Source: Mobula hypostoma (Eukaryota). From it: a DNA stretch of 64,000 nucleotides. Positions 3,274 to 54,077 of this stretch are shown here, in pieces (positions within the stretch are counted from its first letter, which is position 1; each line of letters opens with the position of its first letter). The position numbers and the translations under genes were made by a program. The notes beneath the pieces are model-generated. The model ran no database searches. It saw nothing but the letters and a program-made list of their open reading frames with translations, and was not told the origin of the DNA. The stretch covers positions 77,564,001 through 77,628,000 of the forward strand of contig NC_086097.1 in the NCBI RefSeq assembly GCF_963921235.1, in the 5' to 3' direction.

Positions 3274-3309
3274 AGTCGACGTTTCAGGCTGAGACCCTTC
3301 GTCAGGACT
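3274..3309 (-). ncRNA. Minimal type I hammerhead ribozyme motif in Penelope terminus
   Basis: Reverse complement reads agtc-CTGACGA-agg gtctcag cct-GAAA-CGTC-gact: intact core boxes, stem I agtc/gact, stem II agg/cct, GUC cleavage triplet. Confidence 0.8.
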
Positions 3310-3605
3310 AACTGAAGGAAGAGTGAGTAAAGGATTTGAAAGTTGGAGGGGGAGGGGGAGATCCAAAATGATAGGAGAAGACAGGAGGGGGAGGGATCGA
3401 GCCAAGAGCTGGACAAGTGATAGGCAAAAGGGGATATGAGAGGATCATGGGACAGGAGGTCCGGGAAGAAAGACAAGGAGGGGGGGTGACCCAGAGGATG
3501 GGCAAGAGGTATATTCAGAGGGACAGAGGAAGAAAAAGGAGAGTGAGAGAAAGAATGTGTGCATAAAAATAAGTAACAGGTGGGGTACGAGGGGGAGGTG
3601 GTGCC

Positions 3606-4237
3606 TTAGCGGAAGTTAGAGAAGTCAGTGTTCATACCATCAGGTTGGAGGCTACCCAGATGGAATATAAGGTGTTGTTCCTCCAACCTGAGTGTGGCTT
3701 CATCTTTACAGTAGAGGAGGCCGTAGATAGACATGTCAGAATGGGAATGGGATGTGGAATTAAAATGTGTGGCCACTGGGAGATCCTGCTTTCTCTGGCG
3801 GACAGAGCGTAGATGTTCAGCAAAGCGGTCTCCCAGTCTGCGTCGGGTCTCGCCAATATATAAAAGGCCACATCGGGAGCACCGGACGCAGTTAGTCGAC
3901 TCACAGGTGAAGTGTTGCCTCACCTGGAAGGACTGTTTGGGGCCCTGAATGGTGGTAAGGGAGGAAGTGTAAGGGCATGTGTAGCACTTGTTCCGCTTAC
4001 ACGGATAAGTGCCAGGAGGGAGATCAGTGGGGAGGGATGGGGGGGACGAATGGACAAGGGAGTTGCGTAGGGAGCGATTCCTGCGGAATGCAGAGAGAGG
4101 TGGGGAGGGAAAGATGTGCTTAGTGGTGGGATCCCGTTGGAGGTGGCGGAAGTTACGGAGAATAATATGTTGGACCCGGAGGCTGGTGGGGTGGTAGGTG
4201 AGGACCAGGGGAACCCTATTCCTAGTGGGGTGGCGGG
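3606..4237 (-). pseudogene. Penelope GIY-YIG endonuclease C-terminal fragment (left arm)
   Basis: RVPLVLTYHP...YPCKRNKCYTC...FTCES..CVRCSRCGLLYIGETRRRLGDRFAEH...HFNSTSH...EEQHLI...LQPDGMN. Confidence 0.9.
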
Positions 4238-4337
4238 TTGTTTGGGGCCCTGAACGGTGGTAAGGGAGGAAGTGTAAGGGCATGTGTAGCACTTGTTCCG
4301 CTTACTCGGATAAGTGCCAGGAGGGAGATCAGTGGGG

Positions 4338-4675
4338 AGTCCTTCCAGGTGAGGCAACACTTCACCTGTGAGTCGACTGGGGTGATAAACTGCGTCCGGT
4401 GCTCCCGATGTGGCCTTTTATATATTGGCGAGACCCGACGCAGACTGGGAGACCACTTTGCTGAACATCTACACTCTGTCCGCCAGAGAAAGCAGGATCT
4501 CCCAGTGGCCACACATTTTAATTCCACATCCCATTCCCATTCTGACATGTCTATCCACGGCCTCCTCTACTGTAAAGATAAAGCCACACTCAGGTTGGAG
4601 GAACAACACCTTATATTCCGTCTGGGTAGCCTCCAACCTGATGGTATGAACATCGACTTCTCTAACTTCCGCTAA
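4338..4675 (+). pseudogene. Penelope GIY-YIG endonuclease C-terminal fragment (right arm)
   Basis: SFQVRQHFTCESTGVINCVRCSRCGLLYIGETRRRLGDHFAEH...LQPDGMNIDFSNFR*. Confidence 0.9.
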
Positions 4676-4975
4676 GGCCCCACCTCCCCCTCGTACCCCA
4701 TCTGTTACTTATTTTTATGCACACATTCTTTCTCTCACTCTCCTTTTTCTCCCTCTGTCCCTCTGAATATACCTCTTGCCCATCCTCTGGGTGTCCCCCC
4801 CCCCCACCCCGTCTTTCTTCCCGGACCTCCTGTCCCATGATCCTCTCGTATCCCCTTTTGCCTATCACCTGTCCAGCTCTTGGCTCTATCCCTCCCCCTC
4901 CTGTCTTCTCCTATCATTTTGGATCTCCCCCTCCCCCTCCAACTTTCAAATCCCTTACTCACTCTTCCTTCAGTT

Positions 4976-5011
4976 AGTCCTGACGAAGGGTCTCAGCCTG
5001 AAACGTCGACT
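4976..5011 (+). ncRNA. Minimal type I hammerhead ribozyme motif in Penelope terminus
   Basis: agtc (4976-79), CTGACGA (4980-86), agg..cct, GAAA (5000-03), C, GTC (5005-07), gact (5008-11). Predicted cleavage after 5007. Confidence 0.8.
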
Positions 5012-5240
5012 GCACCTCTTCCTACAGATGCTGCCTGGCCTGCTGCGTTCACCAGCAACTTTGATGTGTGTTGCTTGAATTTCTAGCATCTGCAGAATTC
5101 CTGTTTACCTTCCTATAACCCCTCTCTTTGCCTCTTGACCCAGGAAAATAACTTCCCTTCAACTCCATGGGCTTCAACTTTAGCTACAAGTGTTTCTGAG
5201 GGACTATCAAATGCTAACTGCAGGACAACATAAATGGCGT

Positions 5241-5886: not shown

Positions 5887-6453
5887 TGTAACATGCTGTA
5901 GGGTTTCACTGCTGTGTAACATGCTGTAAGGATTCACTGATAATGTAATGGTTTCTCTGCAGCAGCAATGTCTGGGTTACGACTAGAGATAACGTGGGTT
6001 TGGAATGCTGTTGTTCTTTCTTGTGAGCTGGAAGAGAGATTTTCGTGGTCATTTGCCATGGAGAGATGAGGAGAGAAGATGCGAATGGAGAGAGTTGGTA
6101 GACCACTAGACAGGGTGGACTTGGAGCAAGGGTCCGAAGGGCAGCGACATTCTGAAGAGGTCGATGGTGGACAATTAACTTATCAGTAGGCTCCAACATT
6201 GTGCAACAGACTGTTTAATAATATTGGGTCCTTTATTTCTTTTTTTCTGTTTCTTTACTAACCATATAGTCAAAGTAAGAGTTATAAAGCTTAACCATTT
6301 AATTGCATATTGTGTACTGTTTGTTATTTCAGGGTACTGATTTGTAACAGAGGACACATCGCACAGCATCCACTCAAACTAGGTTTCTTCAGTTTGGCCG
6401 GGACGGGAGCTATCACCCCCTATATTAAGCCACTAGCTGAAGCGAAAGCTACA
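5887..6453 (+). repeat. Gypsy 5' LTR (567 bp)
   Basis: Starts TGTAAC, ends GCTACA; direct repeat of 14839-15402. Confidence 0.95.
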
Positions 6454-6457
6454 ATTG

Positions 6458-6475
6458 TGGGGGCTCGTCCAGGAT
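6458..6475 (+). promoter_or_regulatory. Primer binding site, tRNA-Pro
   Basis: tgggggctcgtccaggat is a 17/18 match to the canonical Pro PBS TGGGGGCTCGTCCGGGAT, 4 nt after the LTR. Confidence 0.9.
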
Positions 6476-6606
6476 TGATTCCGTTGGATGCTGTGTGATT
6501 ACCCTGAGCAATGAACCAGTGGGGCAGATATTTGTACTCTGGATGAATTGTTAATTCACCTGTTAAGTGCCGTTGAAGTTGTGATTGTGGGCGGAAGTTT
6601 GATAAA

Positions 6607-7684
6607 ATGGCTCGCGCAGCTCTCGTTCTAATGCAGGCCGGTGCTGAGGTAGTGGTAGCTGGGGGTGGAGATTTCAAAGACAGGGTTCTCTCATTTCTGA
6701 GGAGTGAGGGGAAAGAGTGGTTAGATTTGGAATGTCTAATTAGTCCACGTCCCCTGGTGAAGAGTGAGAATTCTGAGTTAGTATCCGCCTTTACTTCTCT
6801 GGTGAATAAATGGAAAAATCAGATTCAAAGTCCCAGCTATGGCAGGCTCTGCCTATTCTCTGGAATAACACCCACCCCTAAAGGGGAGGAGGAGTATGAG
6901 ACTTGGGTGGAGCGGACCTCCCAGTTGTTAGATGAGTGACAGTGCTCTGATGATGAAAAGTGACAGAGATTGATTGAAGGTTTGAATGGGCGGGCCGCTG
7001 ACGTTGTGAGAGCCGTCAGGCTGCGGTATCCCCTAGCAACCGTGAGTGATTACCTGGAAGCACTGGAAAGCTCTTTTAGCACAACAGGAATCCCAATGGA
7101 GCTCCTGGTGGGGTTTCAGAACATGTGTCAGGAGAAGGGGGGGAAACTTTCTGCTTTTATTTTTCTGCTAGAGAGGCGGCTAAATTGCTTGTGGCACAGA
7201 GGGGTCATTCAGGCGGCTGAGGTGGATCAGTTAAGAATGGACCAGATAGCCAGGGGCGCCCAGTCCCAGGACCTGATTGCTTGGGGTCTCCGACAGTCTC
7301 GTAAGATGTGCCCCCCTCCATCTTTTGTTGAGCTGATCAGAGAGGTACGGGAAGAGGAGAACCACATCGGAGGCGCAAGAGGACTCAGTCAGCAGGGTAC
7401 AGTCCTCGGGAGCAGTCCCCGGCGGTGAAGTGACCACAGATAGCCTACCCCAGGGAGTGGTAGAGGAGGTTGTGGCAGAGTTGAGAATGGAGGTATGTCA
7501 GCTGTTATCAGCAGGTGTGACCCCCCCCAATATGATGGAGCTGATGGGGGGGTGTGGGCGCATACCCCAAGGGGACGGACAATGCGGAGGGCTGCTGGCA
7601 GCAGGTGTCACGTCAGAAAGAGAGCGAGCCCCTGGGTACCTCAGCAAGGAGAGTCGCTGGGAAAACCTAGAGGAGACCCAGTGA
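6607..7684 (+). pseudogene. gag: Gypsy gag, PNMA/Ma-antigen-like capsid domain, disrupted
   Basis: YGRLCLFSGITPTPKGEEEYETWVE..QLLDE*QCSDDEK..RLIEGLNGRAADVV...VSDYLEALESSF...QEKGGKLSAF...PPPSFVELIREVREEE. Boundaries approximate. Confidence 0.85.
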
Positions 7685-9193
7685 GGGAACGGTCTGGTGT
7701 CTCTGTGTTCCCGACAATTACCAAGGAACCCCCGAAAGCAAAAAGGCCCTATTCCTGAAGGCTTAGTGGGTCCACGCTCCAGTGTGTCGCTATGAATAGA
7801 AGGCATTTATGCTAAAGTCATGTTCGACACCGGGTCGCAGGTCACGTTGTTGTACCGTTCGTTTTACAACCAGTATCTGATGCATTTACCACTGACACCA
7901 TTCAGGGCATTGGAGATCTGGGGGCTTAGTGCTAGTGATTATCCATATGACAGTTATTTGTCAGTGAAGTTGGAGTTCTCGGAGACCGATGTGGGAGTGT
8001 CTGAGGTCTTTGATACAGTGATGCTGGTTTGTCCGGACCCTGTTGAGGAGGGGCGGCATTTCAATTCTGGTGGGGACCAACACCCCTCTCGTGAGGAGGC
8101 TCATGGGGGCCTTGCAAGGAGAAGGCTGGTGAGAGCTTTCTGGGAACATTGTCCGTGCACCCGGGGATTTGAGCTGCTTTTGAGGAAGCACGTGGCAGCA
8201 TTGGGCTGGATACTGAATTTAGACGAGGGACTGTGTGGTTCACCCAGTCGAAGCCAATGGTGATACGGCCCGGGGAAGTAGCGAGAGTGATGGGGACCCC
8301 CAAATTTCCCGGAGTGCCTGAGGACAAAGTCCTCTTAGTGGACACTCTGGAAAACCACGAGGGGGAGTCGGGATTTCCTGCTGGGGTACTGGTGAGGCCA
8401 GAATTGCAGAAGCCCTCGGTTGTACAGGAACACAGGATGGCAGTGATTGTCAGGAACACTACGAAGAGGGAGGTCACCTTCAAGCGGGGGATGCCCCGGC
8501 GCATTTGTTCCCGGTGATGGTAATGTCTAGTGCCCCTGTGAAACACGTCGTGGAGAAGCAATTGGAAAAGGGGGGAGAGTTGACCGCTGAGTCATTCAAC
8601 TTCGGAGACTCCCCGGTTCCTGCGGGTTGAAAGAGGAGGTTGGTAGAGAGGATGTTGAAGCTGGAAGGTGTCTTTTCCACTGACGAGTTTGATGTGGGTT
8701 GTTCCAAAAGCACGCGTCACACTATCTGGGTGACTGAGGACACCTCGTTCTGAGAAAGGTCCTGGTGGCTGGCCCCTGCAGAGGTGGAGGATGTTCGGCA
8801 GCATTTGTGAAGGAAGCTGGGATCATTACCGAATCCGGAAGCCCCTATGTGTCCCCAGTAGTAGTGGCCCAAAAGAAGAATGGGAAGGTACAGATGTGTG
8901 TGGACTATAGGACTCTGAACAGGCACACCATCCCTCCCCAACCAGTGTACTATCCCGAGGATTGAAGATGCGCTGGCCTGCCTGGATGATGTGAAGTGGT
9001 TCAGTGTGCTGGACTTGAGCAGTGGCTACTAACAGATCCCTATGAGTGAGGCCGACAAAGAGAAAATGGCTTTTATATATCCCCTGGGATCTTTCCAGTA
9101 TGCCCCAGGGCATATCGGGAGCCCCTGCAACCTTCCAGCAGGTCATGGAGAAGACGGTGGGGGATATGAATTTGCTTGAGGTGTTGGTGTATC

Positions 9194-10036
9194 TGTCATA
9201 AGGCGGTGGTGGCTGGGACGGACCCAAGTGCAAGACACAGACACTGAAGTACTAGGGGCAGGACTAGGATTCAGACTGATGGCAAGGACATGGACAGGAA
9301 AACCAGGAACCTGGAGCAGGACTGGACAAGAGAGCTAGGAGACCAGGTTTGGACTCCAAGCCAGAGACTGGACAAGGACCCAGTACCTGGGTCTTGCCTC
9401 TAGCTTGGACCCCAGAACCAGGCAAGGATGAGGCTTGGCAGGCAGGCAGGACGAGGCTGAAGTCTTCAGGCTTGAGGCTAGAGGTGAGGCTTGTCAGGAG
9501 GCACGAGGCTGGAGTCTTCAGGCTTGGGGTTAGGCAGGCTTCTCCGGGGCAGGGTGCAGTTCACAACCCGACGGAGGCATGGGACAGGAAGGGACAGAAC
9601 CAACTGCAGGTGACGGCAAGACGGCCTGGCTTACCCAACAGAGGCAAGGGACAGGAAGGGAGCTAGGTACAGGATGGCTCCAGCACAAGACTGCAGGCGA
9701 GACGAGGCGAGAGTTACCAGCAAGACAGGCAAGGCTTCTGGCAAAACAAGGCGAGACGAGAACTTCAGGTGAAGCGAGAGTTACCGGCAAGACAAGGCAG
9801 GGCTTCAGGCGAGGAAACAGAAAGCAGAGGAAGAGATACAAGGAGTAAGGACAAGAACAATCCAGCAGCCATGCCCTGGTCTCTGAAGGTATTTATGCAG
9901 CCAGTCCCAACTAGCATCAGCTGACTCAATTAGAACTCAGCAAGAACAGAAATAGGGTAGACAGGAAAACCTGGAGCAAGGGTCATTGTACCAGACCATG
10001 AACTGGAATACAGACTTCACGGACCGGACCATGACA
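9194..10036 (-). mobile_element. Solo LTR (843 bp) of an unrelated LTR element, inserted in the RT catalytic motif
   Basis: TGTCAT...ATGACA inverted termini with perfect 5-bp TSD GTATC (9189-93, 10037-41). Removing it restores gtg tat ctg gat ggc (VYLDG). Strand inferred from a TATA-like cataaata on the minus strand. Confidence 0.9.
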
Positions 10037-10191
10037 GTATCTGGATGGCCTCATAGTATTTGGATCCACCTTGGAAGAACATGAAGTGAGGCTGCTGAAG
10101 GCGCTCAGCCGCCTGAAAGCTGAAGGATTTAAACTTTCCCTGGTCAAGTGTCAGTTCTGCCAAACGCCTGTTAGCTATGTTGAGCATGTAC

Positions 10192-11722
10192 CAGGTGTCC
10201 CCCGCTTTTCGAACGTTCGCTTTACGAAACCTCACTGTTTCGAAAGACCTACATTAGTACCCTGTTTTTGCTTTCAGAAGGTGTTTTCACTGTTACAAAA
10301 AAAAATTCTGCGCGCGATAAAAGGCAGCGCGCCCCGAGCAGCCGCTCTCCCCTGGATTGGGAACTGCTTTGCTTTAACACGTGCCTGTGAGCAGCCGTTT
10401 GCAAGATGAGTTCTATGGTATCGGAAAAGCCTGAAAGAGCTCATAAGGGTGTTACACTTACGGTAAAACTAGACATAATTAAGCGTTTTGATCATGGTGA
10501 ACGAAGTAAGGACAACATGAGTTTGGCTTGTGGAAGCTGATGAACATGATGTTGAAGAGGTTTTGGCATCCACCAAGAACTGACAGATGAAGAGCTGATG
10601 CAATTGGAAGAAGAAAAGGATAACAATTGAAACCGAATAAGTAATGATAAAGTACAACTTTAATTTTGAAGGGGTACGTCGGTTTAGGAGATATTTGCAG
10701 GATGGTTTGAGTCCTTATTAAAGAACTGTGTGATAGAAAAATGCGCGAGGCTCAGCAGTCAAGCAAGCCTTCCACATCAGCCACAGCAGACAACGAACCT
10801 CGACCTTCGACATCGAGGCGGGCAGAGATAGAAGAAGATGAGCTGCCTGCTCTAACGGAAATAGGCGACGAAATGACACCCCAGTGTCCCACCACCCCAA
10901 CCCCCAGGCCACGGACAGATACCGATTCACGGAGAATGCAAAGGTAGCCAGGAGGCACACAGCACATCTTTAAGGAAAAAGCCGAAATAAACATGCTAAT
11001 TAATTAGGTGCCGCCGACACCTAATTGTTGGCCCAGATCAGAGACGATGCAATCGGAAATCGGCACTGATCTGGGCCGACAATTATGGGTGGCACCTAAT
11101 TAATTAGCATGTTTGTTTCAGCTTTTTTCTTAAAGATGTACTGTGTACCTCCCGGCTACCGCTGGACCCCTGCATTCTTCGCGGCAATGTATTGCTCAGT
11201 GGCCTGGAGGGTGGGGGCCACTGCACCACTCAAACTCCGACAAGTCTAACACACCATCATCAGTGTGCTCTGCGCTGTCTTCCCGATTCCCGTAAGTGAT
11301 ACTACACTGTACATACATTATTTCTACTTTATATAGGCTGTGTATTTTTACGTGTTATTTGGTATGATTTGGCAGCTTCATAGCTTAAAGGTTACTGGAG
11401 AGAGTGTTCTTGCCAACAGCGCTTGTGTGAGATTTTTTGCTGATGGCGCTTGCGTGAGATTTTCGCTATGGAGAACAGTTCAGTAATGATTGTGGAAAAG
11501 TATTTCTACTTTATATAGGCTGTATATTTATCATATCATTCCTGCTTTTACTATATGTTACTGTTATTTTAGGTTTTATGTGTTATTTGGCATGATTTGG
11601 TAGGTTATTTTTGGGTCTGCAAACGCTCACAAAATTTTCCCATATAAATAAATGGTAATTGCTTCTTTGCTTTACGACATTTCGGCTTACGAAGTGTTTC
11701 ATAGGAACGCTCTACCTTCGTA
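10192..11722 (+). mobile_element. Tigger/pogo-like non-autonomous DNA transposon with right end lost
   Basis: Left end CAGGTGTCCCCCGCTTTTCGAACG next to TA. Remnant CENP-B-type HTH (KGVTLTVKLDIIKRFDHGERSK) and Tigger-like C-terminal remnant (D.EEVLAS...LTDEELMQLEE). Gypsy RT stops before it and resumes at LRSFLGFCGYY. Confidence 0.8.
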
Positions 11723-13151
11723 TGAGCACTCTGCGCTCATTCCTCGGGTTCTGTGGTTACTATTGGAGGTTTGTGAAAGGCTACGTGAAAGTGAGTCACC
11801 CTTTGAATCAGCTTCTGTGCAGTTACCCTCCTTGGGGAAGAAAGGGAGGGGGACAAAAGGACAGGAGGGTGAAGAGTGTCTTATCCCGTCGGAGCCCTTT
11901 GGACCAAGGTGGGATGCAAAATGTGAGGAGGCCTTTCAGTCACTGAATGAAATGCTGACCCAGGCGCCAGTGCTGGCTTTTGCGGGCCCCCGATTACCAT
12001 ATGTACTGCACACGGATGCCAGCGGAGAGGGTTTAGGGGGCGTCCTGTATCAGGATCAGGGCTCTGGGTTAAGGCCCGTTGCGTTTGTCAGCCGGAGTCT
12101 GTCGCCCCTCCCAAAAAAATTATCCCACTCACAAGTTGGAATTTCTGGCGTTGAAATGGCCGGTGGTGGATAAGCTGAGTGACTACCTCTACAGGGCCAA
12201 GTTTGAGGTGAGGACGGACAACAACTCCCTAACTTATATCCTGACCTCAGCGAAACTGGACGCCACAGGCCATCGATGGTTGGCAGCGTTGTCTGCCTAT
12301 GATTTTAGTCTGAGGTACCAGCCAGGAAGCAGGAACATTGATGAGGATGCTTTGTCCCAACGGGTGCATGAGGGACTGGACAGGGACGAGGAGCGGGAGA
12401 TCGTTCCTGCCCTGGGGGTGAAGGCCATATGTCAGTTTGCCATCACCGTGAAGGCAGAGGGAAAGGAGAGGCAGGATCGGGCAGTGGATCACTTGGGGGC
12501 TTCTGATGACACTATTCCCCAAGTTTACTGTAACCTGACTGCTCTGAAGACAAATCAGCTGCCGGAATTGAGGTCTGGGGAAGTGGCAGCTACTCAGTGA
12601 GATGATCTGGGCATTGGCACCATTTGGGCTGTGCTTGAAAAGGAAGGCATGGATCAGGCGGAGAAGATGAAACACTCGTCGATGCCTCCATTACTACAAG
12701 AATGGCCTCAGTTGGAGTTGAAGAACCAGATCTTATACCGGGTCACGTCACCCCCAGACCTACCCCGGCGTTGCCAGCTGGTTCTGCCTGAGAAGTATCG
12801 GAGGATGGCGTTGAAATTACTTCATGATGATTCTGGACACTTGGGGGTGGAAAAGACCTATGGATTGCTCAGAGACCGGTTTTACGGGTCCTGAATGAAG
12901 TCAGAGGTCGAAGAATACTGTAAGTCGTGCATTCGCTGCATACGGCGGAAGACACTGCCTACACAGGCAGCTCCCTTGTCCCACCCACAGAGCGCAGAGC
13001 CTCTGGACCTGGTGTGTATGGATTTCCTGTCAATAGAACCCGATGCCAGCAAGACGGCAAATGTCTTAGACATCACGGACCACTACACCAGATATGCTCA
13101 GGCTTTTCCTACCAAGGACCAGAGGGTGTCTATGGAGGCAAAGGTGTTATG

Positions 13152-13537
13152 TGTTGCACACTTGGACACAGAAGGGACTTCCAGGCGTGCAGAAGTTTAA
13201 AATAAACGTCTTTATTTTCCTTTCTAGAAATACAGGAACACAAGCGCATCGGCTTACCATTCATGCTGCCGGGCCATCTCAGTCTACTCCATCACGTGTG
13301 CACTCCCGTGTCCCCAGGACCCCTCAGCTGCCCCAAGTGCTTGTATAAGCTTTGCCCCTTGTAACCATCAATTAACCTCCTAAAATATTACCATTGCTAG
13401 TGCAACTGACCATTAATCAAATTGTGAATGAGCAAACTAACAAACCAAAGCAATATAAATAATATGAACATAATGTAAGAAAATTAGTGGGGTATCCAGT
13501 GTCCATTAATATGCTCCACATTACTATGGGTCCCACA
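13152..13537 (-). mobile_element. Solo LTR (386 bp) inserted in the Gypsy integrase core
   Basis: TG...CA ends with 4-bp TSD TATG (13148-51, 13538-41). Removing it restores AKVLWKKYFIYYGLP. Strand is tentative. Confidence 0.85.
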
Positions 13538-14825
13538 TATGGAAGAAGTATTTCATTTATTATGGCCTTCCCAGTCGAATACATAGTGATCAGGAGTGGA
13601 ATTTCGAAAGCAGACTCACCCGTGAGTTGCTGGGCATGCTTGGAGTCGAGAAGTCGAGGACCAGGCCCAATCACCCACAGGGTGATCCTAGCCAAAGGGG
13701 TTTAATCAGACCCTGCTAGAAATGCTCAGGACCCTTGAGATCAGGTGGAGTCAACATATTGGGCATCTGGTTCACAGTTACAACTGTACACAAAGTGAAG
13801 CTACTGGGTACACGCCATATTATCTGATGTTTGGACGCGAGGCAAGTTTGCCCATTGACCTTTGTTTTGGGACTGACAAGGGTGACTTACCACCAAAGAC
13901 TTAGCTGAAGTATGTGTCTGACATGAGAAGAGAGTTGAAAAGGGCTTATGAATTAGCTGGGGTCACGACTGCCCAGAAAAATCAAGGGAATAAGAGGAGG
14001 TACGATCAAAAGGTGAGGTTCTCCCAACTCCTGCCTGGAGACCGAGTCCTCATAAGGAACTTGGAGTGACTTGGAAAGCATAAGTTCGCTGACCGCTGGG
14101 TGGCTATGCCCTATGTGGTGGAGAGTCAGATGCCAAACCTACCAGTTTTCCTGGTGAAACTAGAGGATGGGAATGGGCCTGTCAAGATTCTCCATCGGAA
14201 CCACCTGTTGCCCCTGGGACAAGAGGTGCAGGTAGACCCAGAGCCCGACTTGGAACCTACACCTAGTAAGAGGACTCTGCGGAAATGTGGGACGACTATC
14301 GGGCCGCCAACAGGCAAGGTTACTCCGGTCCCACCCCCAAGAGGGATACTGATTCGGAGGATGAGAACCTGGATGTATGGTATATGCTGCCTTTCGCTAA
14401 CTCCCTAGTGATTGAGGAAGAGACTCCCGGTCCTTCTCCGATTGAGACAGGTGAAGTATGGGGGGGCTCTCTGTGGGCAGCCTGGTTGCAGCGGGACTCT
14501 GCAGGGGAGGAAGCAGGGTTTGATCATGGAACAGAGGGCTGCGAGTTTCCGGTGGGCACAAGTGATAGATCGGGGAAGCCTCACCAGGTAGACCGGAAGT
14601 ATCCCCAGTAGTGTCGGAACCTGAAGAGTTAGATGATGGGGTGCGGAGGTCTCAGCGAATTAAGAGACCACCGGATAGGTTAGCCTACATAGCACCAGGG
14701 GAACAGAGTGTGACCCCTACTGTGTTGAGGAGCTACGTCACTGCCTTTTACACCTGGATTGTGCTTTGTGTTTTGCAGGAAGGGTTGGTGAATTTGCTCA
14801 ATGTCATGAGGACATGAATAAATTT

Positions 14826-14838
14826 GGTGGGGGGAGAG
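14826..14838 (+). promoter_or_regulatory. Polypurine tract
   Basis: ggtggggggagag abuts the TG of the 3' LTR. Confidence 0.85.
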
Positions 14839-15402
14839 TGTAACACGCTGTAGGGTTTCACTCCTGTGTAACGTGCCATAAGGTTTCACTGATAATGTAA
14901 TGGTTTCTCTGCAGCAGCAATGTTTGGGTTATGACTAGAGATAACGCGGTTTGGAATGCTGTTGTTCTTTCTTGTGAGCTGGAAGAGAGGCTTTCGCGGT
15001 CTTTTGCCGGGGAGAGATAAGGAGAGAAGACGCGAATGGAGAGAGTCGATAGACCACCGGACAGGGTGGACTTGGAGTGAGGGTCTGAAGGGCAGCGACG
15101 ATCAGAGCAGGTCGATGGTGGACGATCGGCTTATCAGTGAGCTCCAACATTGAGCAACAGGCTGTTTAATAAGATTGGGTCCTGTTTTTCTTCTTTTGTT
15201 TCTTTACTAATCATATAGTCAAAGTAAGAATTATAAAGCTTAATCATTTAATTGCATATTGTGTACTGTTTGTTATTTCAGGGTACTGATTTGTAACAGG
15301 GGACATATCGTGCAGCATTCACCCAAACGAGATTTCTTAAGTTTGGCCGGGACGGGGAGTATCACCCCATATATTAAGCTGCTAGCCGAAGCCAGAGTTA
15401 CA
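14839..15402 (+). repeat. Gypsy 3' LTR (564 bp)
   Basis: Starts TGTAAC, ends GTTACA; direct repeat of 5887-6453. Confidence 0.95.
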
Positions 15403-17229: not shown

Positions 17230-17345
17230 ACCAACTCTGATGAAAGGTCACAAACCTGAAATGTGACCCCTTTCTCTTTCGACAAATACTTCCTGACCCA
17301 ACGAGTATTTCTGACAGTCTTTGTTTTTAATTTCAGCTTTACAGT
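17230..17345 (+). mobile_element. Old Penelope-derived terminus with hammerhead-like core
   Basis: CTGATGA (17237-43), a, aggt cacaa acct, GAAA (17258-61), followed by a degenerate version of the pLTR tail. Confidence 0.6.
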
Positions 17346-17925: not shown

Positions 17926-19349
17926 TTAACCTTTTGCACAATAGTGTAATGAAATATTAAGTTGGCATGAAGAAAACTGGATTAAAAACATAAAATGCTT
18001 TGGGACATTTAGCAGCCCAGGTAGCATCTGCAGAGGGACAAAATATATTTAGATGTCGATCCATTGCCAAAGCTGGAATTATTTTCCAACAGCTTAAATT
18101 AAAGCAAGAATATAAGTGAGACATAACTCATAAAAAGACCCGGCAAGAGAAAAAGATAACATGTTATACTTATCTTGGCTTTAAGATGTGTCAGAATGCT
18201 TTCAAACCAGTGAATCAATTTAGCAGTTTAATCATTGTTGTAATTAATATTAAGTCTGATAGAAGGATTTGAAATGACAGGAGCATGTAGTGGTTGGTCA
18301 GTGCCATTCAAAGAATGATAGAGTGTTGTTGCAAAGAAAGCTGATTTCATTGTGTCTTCCACTGCAAGATTCAGCAATGCCCCAGTCCTAGGTGGGATAT
18401 TTTCCTGCTTGTTTCAGATATTATAATGAGCCAAAATCAAAGCCAGGTCTAAAGGGAGAAAGAGTCAAAAGTCAGGGTCCTGATCCTGCACTGCACAGGG
18501 ATAGGAGAGGGATCCTGAGATCAGAGCCTGGCTGAGTAGTGGGTTGTCTAGAGATCAAAGCCTGAGACTGAGGGCAGGATGAGAGATAACAGGTGGCTAA
18601 GTAACAGGGACAAGGGAAGGGTGTAAGGGGCAGGGGTGAGGGGGTAAATGTTTGCCATATATTGGAACAAAGGAGAAATGCCCAAAGATCAGAGCCTGGG
18701 AGGTAAGGATGGAGCAGAAATCAGATAACGGGTGGGCTGTGCCCAGGCACCAGACTCTGCCGATGGGGTGGTGGCTAGAGATTGTGACTGGCTAGCAGTT
18801 TTTGGGAGCTGTGGGGATGTGGATAGACAGCTCAAATGGAGTAGGCAGAGCAAAGCTGCTGATGTGAGAAAGTAATTACAAAGGACAAGGGTAAGGTTGG
18901 TTCCCGGCACTAAGCTGGGTCATGCCCATTACAAGAGGCCCTGTGCTGTACTGTTTCTACAGTTCAATGAGAACATGCGATTGGCCACTCAACAATGTTT
19001 CATCTGCCGATCTACTTTTCCAGACAACACTCCAACTGAGCTAGCAGAAGAATTACCTGAGGAACGATGCCATTACAAGCTCAAATGATGTATAAATCAC
19101 AATAGGTGCACCCAAAGTGACTTGCAGGTAAAGACGTTGCTATGGCAAAAGTAAGTGGTTTTCAGGCATTTAGACACAGGGAAAAAAAACATGTGCCATG
19201 TTCAAATTTCTAGTCCAAGTAGCCTTTGGGCTCTGTGGTTTCTTCAGATCTTAGTTCTATGTGTTTGGATTAAATGAGAGCACTCAACATCTACTCGCCA
19301 TCTACAATATGTTCTACAATATTCATCCTCAGTGCATTAGTGAGATCGA

Positions 19350-44442: not shown

Positions 44443-45214
44443 CATAGAAACATAGAAACATAGAAAATAGGTGCAGGAGTAGGCCATTCGGCCCTTCGAG
44501 CCTGCACCGCCATTTATTATGATCATGGCTGATCATCCAACTCAGAACCCTGCCCCAGCCTTCCCTCCATACCCACTGATCCCTGTAGCCACAAGGGCCA
44601 TATCTAACTCCCTCTTAAATATAGTCAATGAACTGGCCTCAACAGTTTCCTGTGGCAGAGAATTCCACAGATTCACCACTCTCTGTGTGAAGAAGTTTTT
44701 CCTAATCTCGGTCCTAAAAGGCTTCCCCTCTATCCTCAAACTGTGACCCCTCGTTCTGGACTTCCCCAACATCGGGAACAATCTTCCTGCATCTAGCCTG
44801 TCCAATCCCTTTAGGATCTTATACGTTTCAATCAGATCCCCCCTCAATCTTCTAAATTCCAACGAGTACAAGCCCAATTCATCCAGTCTTTCTTCATATG
44901 AAAGTCCCGCCATCCCAGGAATCAATCTGGTGAACCTTCTTTGTACTCCCTCTATGGCAAAGATGTCTTTCCTCAGATTAGGGGACCAAAACTGCACACA
45001 ATACTCCAGGTGTGGTCTCACCAAGGCCTTGTACAACTGCAGTAGTACCTCCCTGCTCCTGTACTCGAATCCTCTCGCTATAAATGCCAGCATACCATTC
45101 GCCTTTTTCACCGCCTGCTGTACCTGCATGCCCACTTTCAATGACTGGTGTATAATGACACCCAGGTCTCGTTGCACCTCCCCTTTTCCTAATCGGCCAC
45201 CATTCAGATAATAA
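44443..45214 (-). mobile_element. Young 5'-truncated CR1 LINE
   Basis: Uninterrupted frame YYLNG..LG.GEVQRDLGV...LYKALVRPHLEYCVQFWSP...; (TTTCTATG)n tail; tctgttaa duplicated at 44435-42 and 45215-22. Confidence 0.92.
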
Positions 45215-46977
45215 TCTGTTAAAACAGTGACGAATGGCCTATGAGTGAAGGGCTCGGGCTGCAGTGTTGAGGTTCTGCTGTGTGAACTAGTGCTCAGCCA
45301 CACTTTGCCCAGCTTAGTCAAGACATGTGTGAACGGGGAGGTAAAGCAAAATGGCTTTTCACCTGGGAAATTGCCATCTCATGTCTCCCTCCCTCCACAG
45401 ATAATGACCTTGAGCCTTTCCAGCATTTTCTGATTTAATTTGAAACTTCCAACATCTTAACTTTGAAAGAAGATTATTTTATTTGTAAGTGCACTAATTT
45501 ACAAAGCTTATATTAAAAGCAATATTCTTCCATTATGAAGAGTACCTCGATTACCGTGAAGGTTATTGAATGGACTGACTTTTTGCAGTCAGAATGGACT
45601 GCAAACAGTCACATGGTTACACAATCAGCAGAGAAGTTATTTTGCTCCAGGCCACTTGATATCCAATTGGTAGGTGCTGGAAACCAAGAAGAACCCAAGC
45701 AGACAGTCCTTTATGCACCTTCTGTTCTTGATATAGACATCCACCTCCATCTCACCAACCTCACCTACAACAAATGTGCCACTCTTATTCACATGATAGA
45801 AAGGCAGCGATAAACAGTTTAAAATTAGGGGTGTGGAGTTAATAGAGCTACTGCTTCATATCCCCAGCAACCTTGGTTAAATCCTCACCTGCGGTGTTAT
45901 CTGTGCGGAGTTTGTACATACTCACTTTTGCTGGATGAGTTGCTTCTAGGTGCTCTCATTTCCTCCCATGACCTAAAGACATGCAAATTGGTAGATCACC
46001 CGGTCACTGTAAATTACCTTTGTGTAAGTGGATGACAGAATCTGGGAACACACATCAAAGTTGCTGGTGAACGCAGCAGGCCAGGCAGCATCTCTAGGAA
46101 GAATTTGAAAGTGGGAGGGGGAGGGGGAGATCCAAAATGATAGGAGAAGACAGGAGGGGGAGGGATGAAGCCAAGAGCTGGACAGGTGATTGGCAAAGGG
46201 GATATGAGAGGATCATGGGACAGGAGGCCCAGGGAGAAAGACAAGGGGGGGAGAAAACCCAGAGGATGGGCAAGGGGTATAGTGAGAGGGACAGGGGGAG
46301 AAAAAGGAGAGTGAGAGAAAGAATGTGTGTATAAAAATAAATAACGGATGGGATACGAGGGGGAGGTGGGGCATTAGCGGAAGTTAGAGAAGTCAATGTT
46401 TATGCCATCAGGTTGGAGGCTACCCAGACGGAATATAAGGTGTTGTTCCTTCAACCTGAGTGTGGCTTCATCTTTACAGCAGAGGAGGCCGTGGATAGAC
46501 ATGTCAGAATGGGAATGGGATGTGGAATTAAAATGTGTGGCCACTGGGAGATCCTGCTTTCTCCAGCGGAGAGAGTGTAGGTGTTCAGCAAAGCGGTTTC
46601 CCAGTCTGCGTCAGGTCTCGCCAATATATAGAAGGCCACATCGGGAGCACCGGATGCAGTACATCACCCCAGCCGACTCACAGGTGAAGTGTCACCTCAC
46701 CTGGAAGGACTGTCTGGGGCCCTGTATGGTGGTAAGGGAGGAAGTGTAAGGGCACGTGTAGCACCTGTTCCGCTTACAAGGATAAGTGCCAGGAGGGAGA
46801 TCAGTGGGGAGGGATGGGGGGGACGAATGGACAAGGGAGTCGCGTAGGGAGCAATCCCTGCGGAAAGCAGAGGGCGCAGGGGAAGGGAAAGATGTGCTTA
46901 GTGGTTGGATTCCATTGGAGGTGGCAGAAGTTACAGAGAATAATATGTTGGACCCGGAGGCTGGTGGGGTGGTAGGT

Positions 46978-47935
46978 CATAGTCATAGTCATAGTCTTAG
47001 TCATACTTTATTGATCCCGGGGGAAATTGATTTTCATTACAGTTGCACCATAAATAATAAATAGTAATAGTAATAGTAATAGTAATACTACTATTAGTAA
47101 ATAGTAAATAGTAATCGCCATGGAAATAATAAATAGTAATAGAATAGTAATAGAAAAATAGTAATAACTAGTTAAATAGTAATATGTAAATTATGAAATA
47201 AGTCCAGGACCAGCCTATCGACTCAGGGTGTCTGACCCTCCAAGGGAGGAGTTGTAAAGTTTGATGGCCACAGGCAGGAATGACTTCCTATGACGCTCTG
47301 TGTTGCATCTCAGTGGAATGAGTCTCTGGTTGAATGTACTCCTGTGCCCACCCAGAACTTTATGTAGTGGATGGGAGACATTGACCAAGATGGTATGCAA
47401 CTTAGACAGCACCCTCTTTTCAGACACCACCGTGAGAGAGTCCAATTCCATCCCCACAACATGACTGGCCTTACGAATGAGTTTGCTGATTCTGTTGGTG
47501 TCTGCTACCCTCAGCCTGCTGCCCCAGCACACAACAGCAAACATGATAGCACTGGCCACCACAGACTCATAGAACATCCTCAGCATCGTCCAGCAGATGT
47601 TAAAGGACCTCAGTCTCCTCAGGAAATAGAGATGGCTCTGACCCTTCTTGTAGACAGCCTCAGTGTTCTTAAACCAGTCCAGTTTATTGTCAATTCGTAT
47701 CCCCAGGTATTTGTAATCCTCCACCATGTCCACACTGACCCCCTGGATGGAAACAGGGGTCACCGGTACCTTAGCTCTCGTCAGGTCTACCACCAGCTCC
47801 TTAGTCTTTTTCACATTAAGCTGCAGGTAATTCTGCTCACACCATGTCACAAAGTTTCCTACCGTAGCCCTGTACTCAACCTCATCTCCTTTGCTGATGC
47901 ATCCAATTATGGCAGAGTCATCCGAAAACTTCTGA
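46978..47935 (-). mobile_element. Rex1/Babar LINE 3' fragment nested in Penelope
   Basis: KFSDDS, WCEQNYLQLNVKKTKELVVD, YKYLG, YFLRRLRSFN; (ATGACT)n tail and (TAATAG)n tract in the 3' UTR. Penelope ggtaggt|gaggacc resumes at 47936. Confidence 0.9.
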
Positions 47936-48974
47936 GTGAGGACCGGGGAACCCTATTCCTAGTGGGGTGGCGGGAGGATGGAGTGAGAGCAGATGTACGT
48001 GAAATGGGGGAGATGTGTTTGAGAGCAAAGTTGATGGTGGAGGAAGGAAAGCACCTTTCTTTAAAAAATGAAGACATCTCCCTCGTCCTAGAATGAAAAG
48101 CCTCATCCTGAGAGTAGATGCGGCGGAGACAGAGGAATTGCGAGAAGGGGATGTCATTTTTCCAAGAGACAGGGTGAGAAGAGGAATAGTCCAGATAGCT
48201 GTGAGAGTCAGTAGGCTTATAGTAGACATCAGTAGATAAGCTGTCTCCAGAGACAGAGACAGAAAGATCTAGAAAGGGGAGGGAGGTGTCGGAAATGGAC
48301 CAGGGTGAAAGTTGGAGGCAAAGTTAATAAAGTCAACGAGCTCAGCATGCGTGCAGGAATCAACGCCAATGCAGTCGTCGATATAGCGAAGGAAAAGTGG
48401 GGGACAGATACCAGAATAGGTACGGAACATAGATTGTTTCACGAAGCCAACAAAAAGGCAGGCATAGCTAGGACCCATACGGGTGCCCATAGCTACAGCT
48501 TTAGTTTGGAGGAAGTGGGAGGAACCAAAGGAGAAATTATTAATAATAAGGACTAATTCCGCTAGACGGAGCAGAGTGGTGGTAGAGGGGAACTGATTAG
48601 GTCTGGAATCCAAAAAGAAGCAGAGAGCTTTGAGACCTTCCTGATGGAGGATGGAAGTATATAGGGACTGGACATCCATGGTGAAAATAAAGCGGTGGGG
48701 GCCAGGGAACTTAAAATCATCGAAAAGAAATACACACATTCTTTCTCTCACTCTCCTTTTTCTCCCTCTGTCCCTCTGACTATATCCTCTGGTTCCCCCC
48801 CTCCCCCCTTTTCCTTCTCCCTGGGCCTCCTGTCCCATGATCCTCTCATATCCCTTTTGCCAATCACCCGTCCAGCTCTTGGCTCCACATCTCCACCTCC
48901 TGTCTTCTCCTATCATTTTGGATCTCCCCCTCCCCCGCCCACTTTCAAATCTCTTACTAGCTCTTCCTTCAGTT

Positions 48975-49010
48975 AGTCCTGACAAAGGGTCTCGGCCTGA
49001 AACGTCGACC
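48975..49010 (+). ncRNA. Hammerhead motif with core mutation (CTGACAA), probably inactive
   Basis: agtc-CTGACAA-agg gtctcgg cct-GAAA-CGTC-gacc; G-to-A change in the CUGANGA box at a CpG. Confidence 0.65.
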
Positions 49011-49879
49011 GTACCTCTTCCTAGAGATGCTGCCTGGCCTGCTGCGTTCACCAGCAACTTTGATGTGTTTTGCTTGAATTTCCAGCATCTGCAGAACTCC
49101 TGTTGTTTGCGACAGAATCTAGGACTAGTTGATAAAAGTGTAGGGAGATGCAGGATGTTGGGAGGTGCAAGGTTAATGTAGGATTGGTATAAATGGTCAT
49201 TGGAAGTCAGCACAGATCCAATGAGCTAAATGGACTGATTCAGTGTTGAGTGAGCTCTGGTAATCAAAAATTGAAGGCTAAGTAACGTGATGAGTAACTG
49301 AGACAGACCCTGTGCATTTCCAGCATTTCCGCTGAGACAGGCCAATGAGTGCAGAGCCTCTAGATAGCACGGCTGCAGAGTGAAGAGTGTTCCAAAACCA
49401 TGGCTGCTCTATCAGTGAACAAAAGGAATAAAGTTGAAATTTTCATTGTGGCTTGAATTTTGTGCATGACACTACTGGCAATCTCCTTTGGGGAAGTTTT
49501 ACATCGAAAGAGAGGTGTTGAAGCAAATGAAAATCGCTTTGAAAAGTCCAAGATCCAAATTTCCCTGTGGGTTAGAAAAGCATGAAGAAGCAGGTGCAAT
49601 GTCACTGTACTCTGGGCTCATTTGATTTTCATCTGCAGAGCACCGTAACGTTAGGAGATGTGTAGAGATCTCCAGCTCTCCTCCTCTATTTGAGGATAAG
49701 ATGGCAAACGTCAGAGGCAGCTGAATACAGAATAGACTGTCGATGTTTGCAAGAAAGCCATATTGAGAGAACAATGAACTAGACTGTGGCCAACGCTTGT
49801 GCAGCCACCACTGTGTTCTCACGACCCTCCTTGTACACAGTTCCACTCACTTCTTCATACATGAACATCGGCCTGACAC

Positions 49880-50065
49880 CGAGGACATAAAAATATGCTT
49901 CAGAGACTCAGCCGCTCAAGCAGTATCCATTGAAGGAGAAAAGAAGTTCTTCGTCAGAACTCCTGAAATATTTTTGACCTGAAACACTAACTGTTGTTGA
50001 TGGACTGAGAGTTTCTGGTATTTTGTGTTTTGATTTCAGATGTTCAGCATCTACGATTTTTTGAT
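49880..50065. mobile_element. Old miniature palindromic Penelope derivative
   Basis: Minus-strand terminus ending ttcgtcagaact, joined to plus-strand cctga...gacctgaaacactaactg and tail. Confidence 0.5.
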
Positions 50066-50519: not shown

Positions 50520-51070
50520 GCTGGGCCTGTGACGCAACAGTTAGAGCTGCTGTGTCATAGTTCCAGGGACCCATGTTTGATCCTGACCTCAGGTGCTGTC
50601 TTTGTGCATGTCTCCCCTGTGACCTTGAGCAGCACATGTAAAACGTTCGAGAAACTCAACAGGTTCAACAGGATCTACTGAAGGAAATAAACAGTTGATA
50701 TTTTGGCCCAGGACCCTAAACCAGGTCTCTTCATGAAGGGCCTCGGCCTGAAATACTAATTGTTTATTTCTCCCCCGTAGATGCTGCTTGACTTGCTGAG
50801 ATCGTCCAGCATTTTATGTGTGTTGCTCAAGATTTCCAGCATCTACAGAATCTCTTGTCTCCCTATAACTTGGTAGGTTTCCTCTGAGTGTCTGGACCCT
50901 TGGCAAAGACATACTGTTTGTAGATTAATTAGCTTCAGTGCATGAGCCTTAGAGTAGGTGTATTACATGAGAATTGGTGTGCTGCTGAAGTTGATGGTGA
51001 TGCATGAGAATTAAAATAGGATTAACATAGGACACGATGGGCTGAGTGGCTTGTTTCCTCACTTGATCAC
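50520..51070 (+). mobile_element. V-SINE/HE1-type SINE split by a miniature Penelope palindrome
   Basis: tRNA-derived head (gttagagctgctg...cagggaccc.tgtttgatcctgacctc.ggtgctgtct); the body resumes at about 50856. Confidence 0.7.
50628..50855. mobile_element. Miniature (about 230 bp) palindromic Penelope derivative: two inverted hammerhead-containing termini, no ORF
   Basis: Arms pair (gatctactgaaggaaataaacagttgatattttggcc versus ggcctgaaatactaattgtttatttctcccccgtagatg). Flanking near-duplication tgtctcccctgtgaccttg / tgtctccctataacttgg. Confidence 0.75.
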
Positions 51071-51444
51071 TATGACGTTAAAAGTCACCTCTCTACTTGA
51101 GCACGCTGGGTGGGTGGGGGGTGGTGTTGAGTGTATAAAGTTATCACTGGCTAGACATCTCTTTCTGTGCAAAAAACTTGCTGAAAGGCAGTTCTCAACA
51201 ACAGGGATCAGGGTAAAAGGAGGGACAGGTAGGATAGCTTCAGCCTGTCAAACCCTACTGTCTCAGCTATACTGTCCATCAGTAGGGGATCTAAAACAAC
51301 TGGCTAACACAGCAGTGCACATGATCAAATCAATGGCAGGGAACAGGAACACTACTGCATCTCAATTGCATGGCACTTACGTACCTGGTCATAGAAGTCA
51401 GGGACTTTAACTGTTTCTTCCAAAGGAGAAACACATATGGGTTA

Positions 51445-51540
51445 TGGGTAAGCCTAGTAATTTCAAAGGTAGAGACATGTTCGGCACAACTTTGTGGGCC
51501 GAAGGGCCTGTATTGTGCTGTAGGTTTTCAATGTTTCTAA
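51445..51540 (+). mobile_element. Short CR1 3' tail
   Basis: tgtgggccgaagggcctgtattgtgctgtaggttttc.atgtttcta. Confidence 0.7.
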
Positions 51541-51867
51541 AACAAATATGCATGGATTAGATCAACAGGGGGAGTTACTAGGCATAGAGAACACTGATTA
51601 AAATGATATACATTAATTACCTAGGGGATATCTTGAAGTTAGTGAAAATTCAAATTAGCAGAGACGGGGATGAGTTTCCTTGGTAATTTATAGAACCATA
51701 ATGGAGATTGTAAATTGGTTCAAGAACTCACAAATATATCAGGATACCATAGAATCAGAGTCCCTTGGGAGGGAGTTTGTAAGCTCCATTAAGTTGGAAG
51801 GGAGTGTGTAATTATATAGATATTGGTTCAAAGTTTAAATTGAGTGAAGAATGTAGAGAATGGGATC

Positions 51868-52344
51868 ACAAGCATGAAAATATCTGCAGATGCTGGAAAT
51901 CCAAGCAATACACACGAAATACTGGAGGAACTCAGCAGGCCAGGCAGCATCTAGGCTTCCTCTACTGCCACAATGAGGCCACACTCAGGTTGGAGGAGAA
52001 ACACCTTATATTCTGTCTGGATCGCTCCAACCTGATGGCATGAACATCAATTTCTCCAACCTTCAGTAATTGTCCCTCCCCTCCCCTTCATCATTCTCCA
52101 GCCCTTTATATCTTCCACCAATCAACTTCCCAGCTCTTACTTCACCCCTTTCCCTCTCCTAGTTTCACCTATCACCTGCCAGCTTGTACTTTGTCCTTCC
52201 TTCCCCCACCTCCTTCTTGCTGGGACTTCTCCGCTTCCTTTCCAGTCGTGACAAAGGGTCTTGGCCAAACATGTCATCTGTTTACTCTTTTCCATAGATG
52301 CTGCCTGGCCTCCTGAGATTCTCCAGCATTTTGTGCATGTTGCT
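51868..52344. mobile_element. Short fold-back Penelope derivative: inverted terminus, last codons of GIY-YIG, 3' terminus
   Basis: 51868-51953 is the reverse complement of the tail. Then GFLYCHNEATLRLEEKHLIF, a pyrimidine-rich UTR and a degenerate hammerhead at about 52243-80. Confidence 0.8.
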
Positions 52345-53950
52345 GAGGAAGGGAATGGGGTTGGGGTGGGATAGGGTGGAGAGAAAATTAACCTCGTAAA
52401 GTGTTTGTTTACCTTTCACGTTGGTGTCCCATTTCCAATGGTGTATGACATTGATGTTAAAAAAACAAGTTACTACTTCTTGATGAAAGTGTAAAAGCTA
52501 TTTGAGACAATGAGCCAAACATCCCTGATGTCACTGATGAATGGCCTTAAATAACATTGGCACTGGCAGGGCACTTGCAAAAATTTTTCCACTTTTCTTT
52601 GAATTATCCAAAAGGACAGTCCTTGGATAATTCAAAGTCCTTTAAAAGATGGCACCAATGATAATGCTCATTCAAGTGCTCTCCAGTCTCTGTAGCTGGC
52701 TTGAATCCATGACCTTGTGACACAAAAGAGCCAAGGATGACAACAGTAGGTAAAGTATGGAACCAATCTTTCAGAAAGCAGAAAATGATAATGGGTTAGA
52801 AAATAAACTGTTTGGCTTCCCATCTTGATCACTATTTTAAGTAATAGCCCATGTTTGTGAACTTAAGCCAAGGAAAAACATGCTAAGTGGCTTCACAACT
52901 CTTGAAGCCCGAGGTACAGTCATTCATTTTGGAATAATGAGTAAGGAATATTTCAGCAGAACTGAATGTACTGGCAGCTGTGAGACACTTCCTGCAACAA
53001 GTAAAACAGACATTGAAATCCATTTGCACGACTGGCTTCTGTAAACCTACAACCACAGTGCACCAAGATCTGAATGCTCTATAAACCACAGCAAGAATTT
53101 ATTTTCAAAACATTAAATAAATTGCATTCTTATTCCTTTGTTTTTCATTTTTCTTGCTGCAGAACAAGAAAGAACAGAAGCTTTTCTTTTCCAATTCTGC
53201 TACCCATCTTTACTTTCTGAATCTTGCCCATGTTTTTCCTTAGACAGTTTCCAATAAACAATTTTAATGCAAAATAAAATTGAATTCAAAGTAATAATCC
53301 AGCTTTTACATTCTCATGATTTAAACTAAAAAAAATGGATGCATCAATATTTTATGTCAGTAAAAGCACTTATCCAATATTTAAAGAATTAGAGCAATTT
53401 TTATGCGTAGATATGCTAAAAAGAGAGTAACAATTCAGTTTGGAAAATTTTTGACCAATCCATTGATTATTAAGTCTTTCGAACAGATTAAAAGTATGCT
53501 AATTATTTAAAGCAAGAGAGGGAAGAAGTAGGGGATAAAGAGATTGTATTGATTGCAACAGATAGGGATATCTGCTTAGCATTCCACCATATATAAATCA
53601 CTCAGTGAAAAGAATCAAGACTTGTCTGTCCAAATCGACAGAAAGAATTCAGAATTATCAATCCAAACCTATAGATGACACTAAGTTAACAAATGGAGTG
53701 ACCTACGTAGTAAGTTACAGAAGGGTCAAAGACAGAGCAAAATTGGGGCAAGTGGTGTGCATTGTGGGAGAATTACGAGGTCATCCACTTTGCAACATTG
53801 AAAGATAATTTATAATACTTTTTTCTTGCCAAAAGATTAGGAGCTCTGGGGGGGGATAAAGTAATTTATGAATGCAGAAAACACTAGCTGATCAGTATTA
53901 AATAAACATAATGTATATTATATTACAAAAGTATTAAATAAACATAATCA

Positions 53951-54077
53951 AACAACATACATCAAAGTTGCTGGTGAACGCAGCAGGCCAAGCAGCATCT
54001 ATAGGAAGAGGCGCAGTCGACGTTTCAGGCCGAGACCCTTCGTCAGGACTAACTGAAGGAAGAGTGAGTAAGGGATT
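53951..54077 (-). mobile_element. Solitary young Penelope 3' terminus (about 125 bp)
   Basis: Near-identical to 3220-3336. Confidence 0.9.
54015..54050 (-). ncRNA. Intact minimal hammerhead ribozyme motif
   Basis: Reverse complement: agtc-CTGACGA-agg gtctcgg cct-GAAA-CGTC-gact. Confidence 0.8.

Follow-up and report, generated by a model that had tools for sequence, protein, structure and literature searches.

Minimal hammerhead ribozymes are described from the pseudo-long terminal repeats (pLTRs) of the metazoan Penelope-like elements Xena, Poseidon and Neptune of fishes, coelacanth and Xenopus, with about 4,000 minimal motifs reported for the coelacanth and 9,000 for Xenopus; they display no activity as monomers and low activity as dimers (Cervera and De la Pena 2014, PMC4209133). 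No mention of cartilaginous fishes was found in the passages of that paper examined or in two of its three supplement files. For the axolotl, 126,247 canonical type I motifs have been reported. Here we describe a 64,000-nt stretch of contig NC_086097.1 (hereafter, the window; positions are counted from its first letter) that carries a dispersed family of similar motifs. We consider it highly probable, from the sequence, that a Penelope-like retrotransposon, likely of the Neptune clade and likely from a ray, carries these motifs as minimal type I hammerheads in its 3′ terminal repeat, that the ribozyme is predicted to cut only through palindrome pairing or with the element protein, and that the dispersed copies are likely passengers decaying after insertion.

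The locus shares features with several described systems. Like the motifs of PMC4209133, it is a minimal hammerhead in a Penelope terminus; unlike them, as published, the young family has a short 4-bp stem II and G·U in place of G10.1-C11.1. As in the Anolis Poseidon element PAc (Frangieh et al. 2024, PMC11167929), the ribozyme motif lies just upstream of two apparent reverse-transcription starts that define a tail of 30-40 bp, both DNA strands appear to be primed, and uncut RNA would be the insertion template. Unlike PAc, the window element appears to belong to a different clade and has a CX4CXXC linker. The PAc ribozyme is reported to cut only with protein, and its cleavage to be dispensable for insertion (PMC11167929). 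With the Neptune-clade endonuclease-positive (EN+) elements (Craig et al. 2021, PMC8557442) the locus shares a C-terminal GIY-YIG domain with CCHH, a CX2-5CXXC linker, an inverted 5′-truncated partner, a one-sided 30-40 bp tail and target duplication; unlike in these elements, there is no tandem pLTR-ORF-pLTR unit (ORF, open reading frame) in the window. Non-LTR retrozymes (PMC7229834; bioRxiv 10.64898/2026.07.22.740005), reported in the one chondrichthyan sampled in the latter source, likewise place pLTR-derived type I hammerheads in vertebrate repeats. They form head-to-tail tandem arrays, whereas the window copies are solo or inverted, and none of the seven tandem repeats in the window overlaps a motif, leaving no retrozyme-type array.

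The first-pass annotation had reported a 36-nt motif intact at 3274-3309 (minus strand), 4976-5011 (plus) and 54015-54050 (minus), and core-mutated at 48975-49010 (plus), which is borne out both by the sequence and by a strict minimal-hammerhead descriptor (requiring the core, NUH, a palindromic stem III and no fewer than 3 bp in each of stems I and II). The descriptor matched exactly the three intact motifs, compared with a mean of 0.017 and a maximum of one match in 60 shuffled windows. All three contain the core CUGANGA, GAAA and the NUH cleavage triplet, and their stem III is the loopless ACGT noted previously; at 48975 the core is broken by a CpG-type change (G8A, giving CTGACAA) accompanied by one stem I mismatch. 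The predicted cut at 5007/5008 had also been placed correctly on the motif. In contrast, the earlier register of stem II, agg/cct, has a pair probability of 0.02 versus 0.96 for GGGU/GCCU behind a bulged A at 4987. The motifs are as follows:

4976-5011, plus strand: intact minimal type I hammerhead motif (descriptor, fold and covariance model)
4976-4979 and 5008-5011, plus strand: stem I of this motif
4980-4986, plus strand: its core, followed by the bulged A at 4987
4988-4991 and 4996-4999, plus strand: its stem II, with G·U closing
5000-5002, plus strand: GAA, followed by the ACGT palindrome at 5003-5006
5007/5008, plus strand: its predicted cut
3274-3309, minus strand: intact motif, left arm of the insertion shared with 4976
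54015-54050, minus strand: intact motif in a short solo 5′-truncated terminus (about 53948-54080)
48975-49010, plus strand: G8A motif (CTGACAA) with one stem I mismatch, right arm of unit B

Taken in isolation, the hammerhead look might have arisen by chance in a repeat that was then amplified: the 36-mer has a folding z-score of only −0.97, Rfam gives no match, and repeated copies are not independent. This possibility was examined in other element families. A protein search of prokaryote assemblies yielded 20 loci encoding related proteins (L136-L155), most likely animal DNA carried in those assemblies; six of them lie in one metagenome-assembled genome. A search of these loci for the core only, without any pairing requirement, found 13 hits, some duplicated, spread over 11 of the 20 loci. 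Stem III was palindromic (ACGT, ATAT or AGCT) in all 13 hits versus 15% of 102 null hits, stem II reached at least 3 bp in all 13 versus 5%, and stem I did so in 12 versus 5%. When the window motif, nine distinct hits and L138 were aligned, 96.4% of 110 cells paired, a value as high being found in none of 500 shuffles and slid controls reaching 23-36%; 42 cells were changed on both sides, and the loopless palindrome itself covaries across families. The closest outside family (L136, L138 and L142; 45% endonuclease identity) has a U4C core variant, CCGACGA, located by eye ~100 nt beyond the end of the endonuclease; its architecture is otherwise unchanged.

A covariance model built from 10 outside ribozymes only, without any window sequence, produced 13 window matches at E≤5; the top five were those at 31658, 3274, 4976, 54015 and 48975 (E from 3e-4 to 0.17), with 17233 ranking eighth (E 1.7). 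The first-pass annotation had named core boxes conserved no better than the flanks as one ground for refutation, and between families the claim survives this comparison: cores are invariant, stems covary and flanks are unrelated. Given the cross-family pairing, the double-sided changes and the outside model ranking window copies first, the structure, including a palindrome unable to pair within one strand, is on sequence comparison under selection at the level of element families. Ten other families share this architecture with compensatory stems, and chance, refuted by the core-only search, the cross-family alignment and the outside-built model, retains a vanishingly small probability.

A GIY-YIG endonuclease frame stops ~300 nt ahead of the motif, which is in the sense orientation, and in one insertion, unit B, a reverse transcriptase (RT) remnant lies upstream of the endonuclease. 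This position, together with the cross-family covariation, supports the earlier identification of the motif as a Penelope-terminus hammerhead of minimal type I. Among RT proteins, the best matches come from rays (87-88% for Mobula, 84% for Hypanus). Window fragments match PF00078 at E 0.004 and PF01541 at E 2.9e-4, both under the Pfam curated cut-offs; full-length relatives contain both RT and GIY-YIG domains, and one of them (P0104) passes these cut-offs for both; the four uncut Penelope ORFs had no Pfam match at E≤0.001. With the CX4CXXC linker in units A and B and CCHH in the endonuclease end, the element is likely of Neptune type by the definitions of PMC8557442, in which a CX2-5CXXC linker is common to Neptune, Nematis and Naiad. 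The Naiad clade was excluded by domain order. Open frames across the terminus were rejected as genes. The coding remnants are:

3606-4301, minus strand: linker with CX4CXXC and GIY-YIG end with CCHH, left arm of unit A (PF01541, E 2.9e-4)
4340-4675, plus strand: GIY-YIG endonuclease end, right arm of unit A, with its stop ~300 nt before the ribozyme
47937-48727, minus strand: frameshifted, 5′-truncated Penelope-type RT remnant with a YIDD motif

A rearranged junction accounts for the first ~35 codons of the 3606-4301 frame. An old Penelope body fragment at 31093-31293 (39% protein identity) adjoins a decayed tail at 30992-31046 (minus), the two probably forming another broken inverted unit. 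Pieces of the Penelope element are also contained in ray and skate proteins that bear the names of host genes (P0071, P0081, P0085, P0089 and P0092; among the names are an ATP synthase subunit, VKORC1L1 and a chitinase-domain protein), which would represent exonisation or annotation artefacts.

Many of the termini are arranged as inverted pairs, referred to as units A to F:

3220-5105, unstranded: unit A, two 5′-truncated outward Penelope arms, 96.9% alike over 386 nt
3205-3219, plus strand: left copy of the unit A target-site duplication, 15/15 identical (null p 0.0003)
5106-5120, plus strand: right copy of the unit A target-site duplication
46048-49110, unstranded: unit B, left arm (minus) with RT and endonuclease remnants, right arm (plus) at 48730-49110
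46034-46047, plus strand: left copy of the unit B target-site duplication, 13/14 identical to 49111-49124 (null p 0.0007)
51884-52345, unstranded: unit C, older subfamily, 68-72% alike to the young arms
50627-50856, unstranded: unit D, tiny inverted pair of decayed ribozyme-plus-tail arms joined near the ribozyme 5′ edge (junction by eye)
49885-50055, unstranded: unit E, tiny inverted pair, left arm with AGTT and core and then deleted, right arm decayed with AACT
36075-36230, unstranded: unit F, tiny decayed inverted pair whose junction falls within the ribozyme, with a weak right arm (E 0.62)

Target duplications were clear at two of the 14 places tested (units A and B), borderline at one (p 0.035) and not significant at 11. 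Because the motifs at 3274 and 4976 are the two arms of one insert with an exact 15-bp duplication, they represent a single insertion event and were rejected as independent copies. Unit A ends at +58/59 (left arm) and +98 (right arm) from the cut site, and unit B at +64/65 and +104; in each, one arm thus extends 39-40 nt past the end of the other, and the absolute ends differ by ~6 nt between the inserts. In unit B, the left arm has lost its ribozyme by a deletion (junction 46102/46103), the right arm carries G8A, and an unrelated piece of a long interspersed nuclear element (LINE) is inserted at about 46978-47936. Unit C consists of a short tail arm (minus) plus an endonuclease end, untranslated region and decayed ribozyme at 52244 (plus). 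Units D, E and F contain the ribozyme and tail only and are joined at or inside the ribozyme 5′ half, not at the cut site, as read by eye on copies about 30% diverged.

Contigs of four sequencing runs were mapped to the 571-nt stretch 4560-5130; such contigs show neither expression nor RNA ends. Among the contig ends listed, piles occur at 5073-5075 (11 and 25 contigs) and 5102 (53 contigs), and also at 4976 (81, 68 and 2 contigs) and 5012 (71, 71 and 10). The ends at 4976 and 5012 fit a block common to subfamilies and are not relied on; a 1-nt indel may lie behind the 5012 pile, and the 4976 pile, with agreement of about 0.45-0.5, may include 5′-truncated copies. Joints seen in single contigs suggest same-strand tandems elsewhere (5095 to 4977, 119 nt; 5050 to 4613, 438 nt), and one single-contig strand switch falls exactly at 5007. 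A joint from 4902 to 4977 was rejected as splicing, short microhomology explaining it.

We propose that selection on the ribozyme would act in active master elements, whose tandem repeats would give two same-strand copies per RNA; same-strand flanking ribozyme pairs are found in three of the 20 related loci (L139, L141 and L146). Most likely it would be weakly active there, two such copies swapping strands through the palindrome, or when refolded by the element protein. Reverse transcription would start 58-104 nt downstream of the cut site and run through it, and for this reason the templates of inserts spanning the cut site would be uncut or rejoined RNA. A lone copy is expected to fold into an inactive rod in which the core is buried: for the lone motif, the predicted rod (−11.0 kcal/mol, compared with −7.0 for the open core) pairs the core bases GACG with CGUC. 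The dispersed copies would then be passengers that decay after insertion. Cleavage via an RNA dimer, as suggested previously, fits both published work and the covariation of the palindrome, but does not suit these particular loci: 3274 and 4976, being outward-pointing arms of one insertion, have no same-strand partner nearby, and the nearest same-strand intact pair in the window is 50.7 kb apart.

Several results weigh against the reading of these motifs as a cutting ribozyme of a Neptune-clade element. Stem II of the young family, only 4 bp, is closed by G·U in all four young copies, a replacement of the canonical G10.1-C11.1 pair, which is highly conserved though not invariant, and this may weaken the ribozyme; C at 4999 accounts for only 11-39% of depth in the contigs of the four runs, and among the 11 aligned ribozymes this position is G-C in nine and G·U in two. 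At −11.5 kcal/mol, the predicted active dimer falls far short of the stability of two monomer rods (−22.0) and of the minimum free energy (MFE) dimers (−25.2 and −30.3), so that a naked dimer would likely cut poorly, as judged by a nearest-neighbour energy model that takes no account of tertiary contacts or Mg2+. Rfam gave no hammerhead match at the gathering threshold in the window and none at E≤10 in 4800-5200. In the alignment of 11 ribozymes, the number of pairs with a double change does not exceed that of shuffles (61 of 500). No full-length element, 5′ end of a full element, tandem element or direct pLTRs flanking a full ORF occur within the window, the likely Neptune assignment rests on motifs, and the cut at 5007/5008 is a prediction.

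Some of these points would suit a hammerhead shape that this young ray family retains as a signal for protein binding or folding close to where reverse transcription starts, and that never cuts in vivo. Such a role would accord with the G·U at 10.1-11.1 and the predicted inactive rod, with inserts A and B spanning the cut site, and with the anole element, in which catalytic mutants are described as having no effect on insertion and no reads as ending at the cut site (PMC11167929). We nevertheless regard it as unlikely: the catalytic core letters are invariant across 11 families with unrelated stems, apart from one U4C variant, G·U at 10.1-11.1 is also present in the unrelated family L149, and the anole ribozyme is reported to cut when its protein is present (PMC11167929).

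The fate of the ribozyme after insertion can be followed in the older copies. An nhmmer profile of the ribozyme plus downstream tail detected 23 matches at E≤5 in the window, nine of them seeds, and none in the reversed window; since 18 of the 23 have E<0.01, the previous count of nine copies is too low. The older copies include the following:

31658-31694, minus strand: older-subfamily motif with core and stem I AGTT/AACT kept, palindrome changed to ACAT and stem II broken
17233-17269, plus strand: older motif with stem II AGGT/ACCT paired, ATGT as palindrome, G at position 17 and no stem I
1388-1477, minus strand: decayed solo terminus (nhmmer)
about 17986-18038 (minus), 35151-35305 (minus), 55792-55922 (plus) and 60802-60892 (minus): other decayed solo termini (nhmmer)

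Only the copies at 31658 and 17233, out of 11 older ones, keep all 11 core positions, and the core, palindrome and cleavage site together are kept in none of the 11; the copies at 49945, 50728 and 52243 have an incomplete core. The AGTT/AACT stem I at 31658 and the AGGT/ACCT stem II at 17233 read as described in the first-pass annotation. As working variants, however, both copies were rejected, the palindrome being lost in each through changes typical of CpG decay; half of stem II is also lost at 31658. Nor do they provide the stem covariation claimed within the window, which amounts to one double-sided change (the inner stem I pair) plus single-sided changes in 17233. The AGTT/AACT change recurs in both arms of unit E and is likely a subfamily trait that arose in one event. 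In a leave-one-out comparison of the 11 old copies, identity was 64% in the core (72% without two CpG-prone sites), 60% in the stems and 69% in the first tail block. Thus, after insertion the core is not better kept than the tail, and old copies decay at the background rate.

These numbers bear on the possibility that intact dispersed copies work within host transcripts, where different RNAs would pair in trans and the genome would carry a large functional ribozyme load. The family is indeed very abundant, with 9532, 9224, 699 and 27 contigs of the four runs mapped on the terminus (a measure of abundance, not of copy number), and the young copies are identical over the motif except for one loop base. 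Yet old copies decay equally in core and tail, one arm of unit B has lost its ribozyme by deletion and the other carries a mutated one, and a trans duplex of only 4 bp plus swapped stems is predicted to be unfavourable, making activity in host transcripts very unlikely. A functional ribozyme load on host RNA is not implied by these data. Of what was presented as about nine ribozymes, three motifs are intact and stem from two insertions; the others are decaying at the background rate. Three intact motifs in 64 kb correspond to about 30-50 per Mb, with a very wide interval; the density may exceed that of the hosts in PMC4209133, although one window cannot fix a density. The very large genomic load proposed earlier is plausible and would follow from the copy number of the element, thousands per genome being reported for other vertebrates.

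The ribozyme class, the dimer idea, opposite-strand pairs and mass occurrence are already published. In the open-licence literature, we found no paper naming elasmobranch examples of the Penelope hammerhead, and the window adds rays to the hosts of this class, with a family that is very abundant and appears recently active. The role of Penelope hammerheads is described as still open (PMC8557442, PMC11167929), and a young high-copy family with clean insertions offers good material for this question, because arm ends, 5′ breakpoints and decay rates are countable genome-wide.

A bolder proposal, which we consider doubtful, is that the AG forming the first two bases of stem I serves as a 3′ splice acceptor conserved among ray subfamilies, so that splicing would rebuild stem I and switch the ribozyme, and that the arm starts are fixed 39-40 nt apart, as though a protein dimer set the distance. 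A pyrimidine tract plus YAG ends on the first two stem I bases in three subfamilies (4957-4977, 52225-52245 and 31693-31720, minus strand; at 31658, the tract and TAG lie just upstream of the motif). In the outside families the picture at the stem I edge is mixed, and the fixed spacing of starts rests on two inserts. A splice acceptor placed at the edge of stem I is reported for Drosophila virilis (PMC4209133). If true, the acceptor would account for tiny copies starting at the stem I edge instead of the cut site, and together with the fixed spacing would offer a testable way into the role of Penelope hammerheads. The 31658 copy also has a branch-point-like ACTAAC. A second pyrimidine tract plus YAG, followed by ATG and retained by most subfamilies, lies at 5013-5030, ~20 nt past the cut site; it is a possible acceptor or start codon.

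Pattern scans of other collections matched 13 loci in viral contigs, 120 in genome contigs and 2 in metagenomes, all rejected as chance only: of 135 pattern-matched sequences, the terminus profile scored two (metagenome), only over the pattern itself. A protein scan of viral contigs gave 80 candidates and no relatives. The remainder of the window is rich in other repeats. A decayed Gypsy-like LTR retrotransposon with PNMA-type gag and RT_RNaseH matches occupies 5887-15402, its direct repeats (5887-6453 and 14839-15402) being 87-91% alike. LINE remnants of several types, some with RVT_1 or zf-RVT, are found at 21875-23608, 26483-29184, 32552-33400, 44542-45378, 46978-47936 and 56690-60184, with inverted LINE pieces at 56.7-60.2 kb. 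Finally, a frame near 63 kb (63036-63470) without a Pfam match resembles a DNA transposase.

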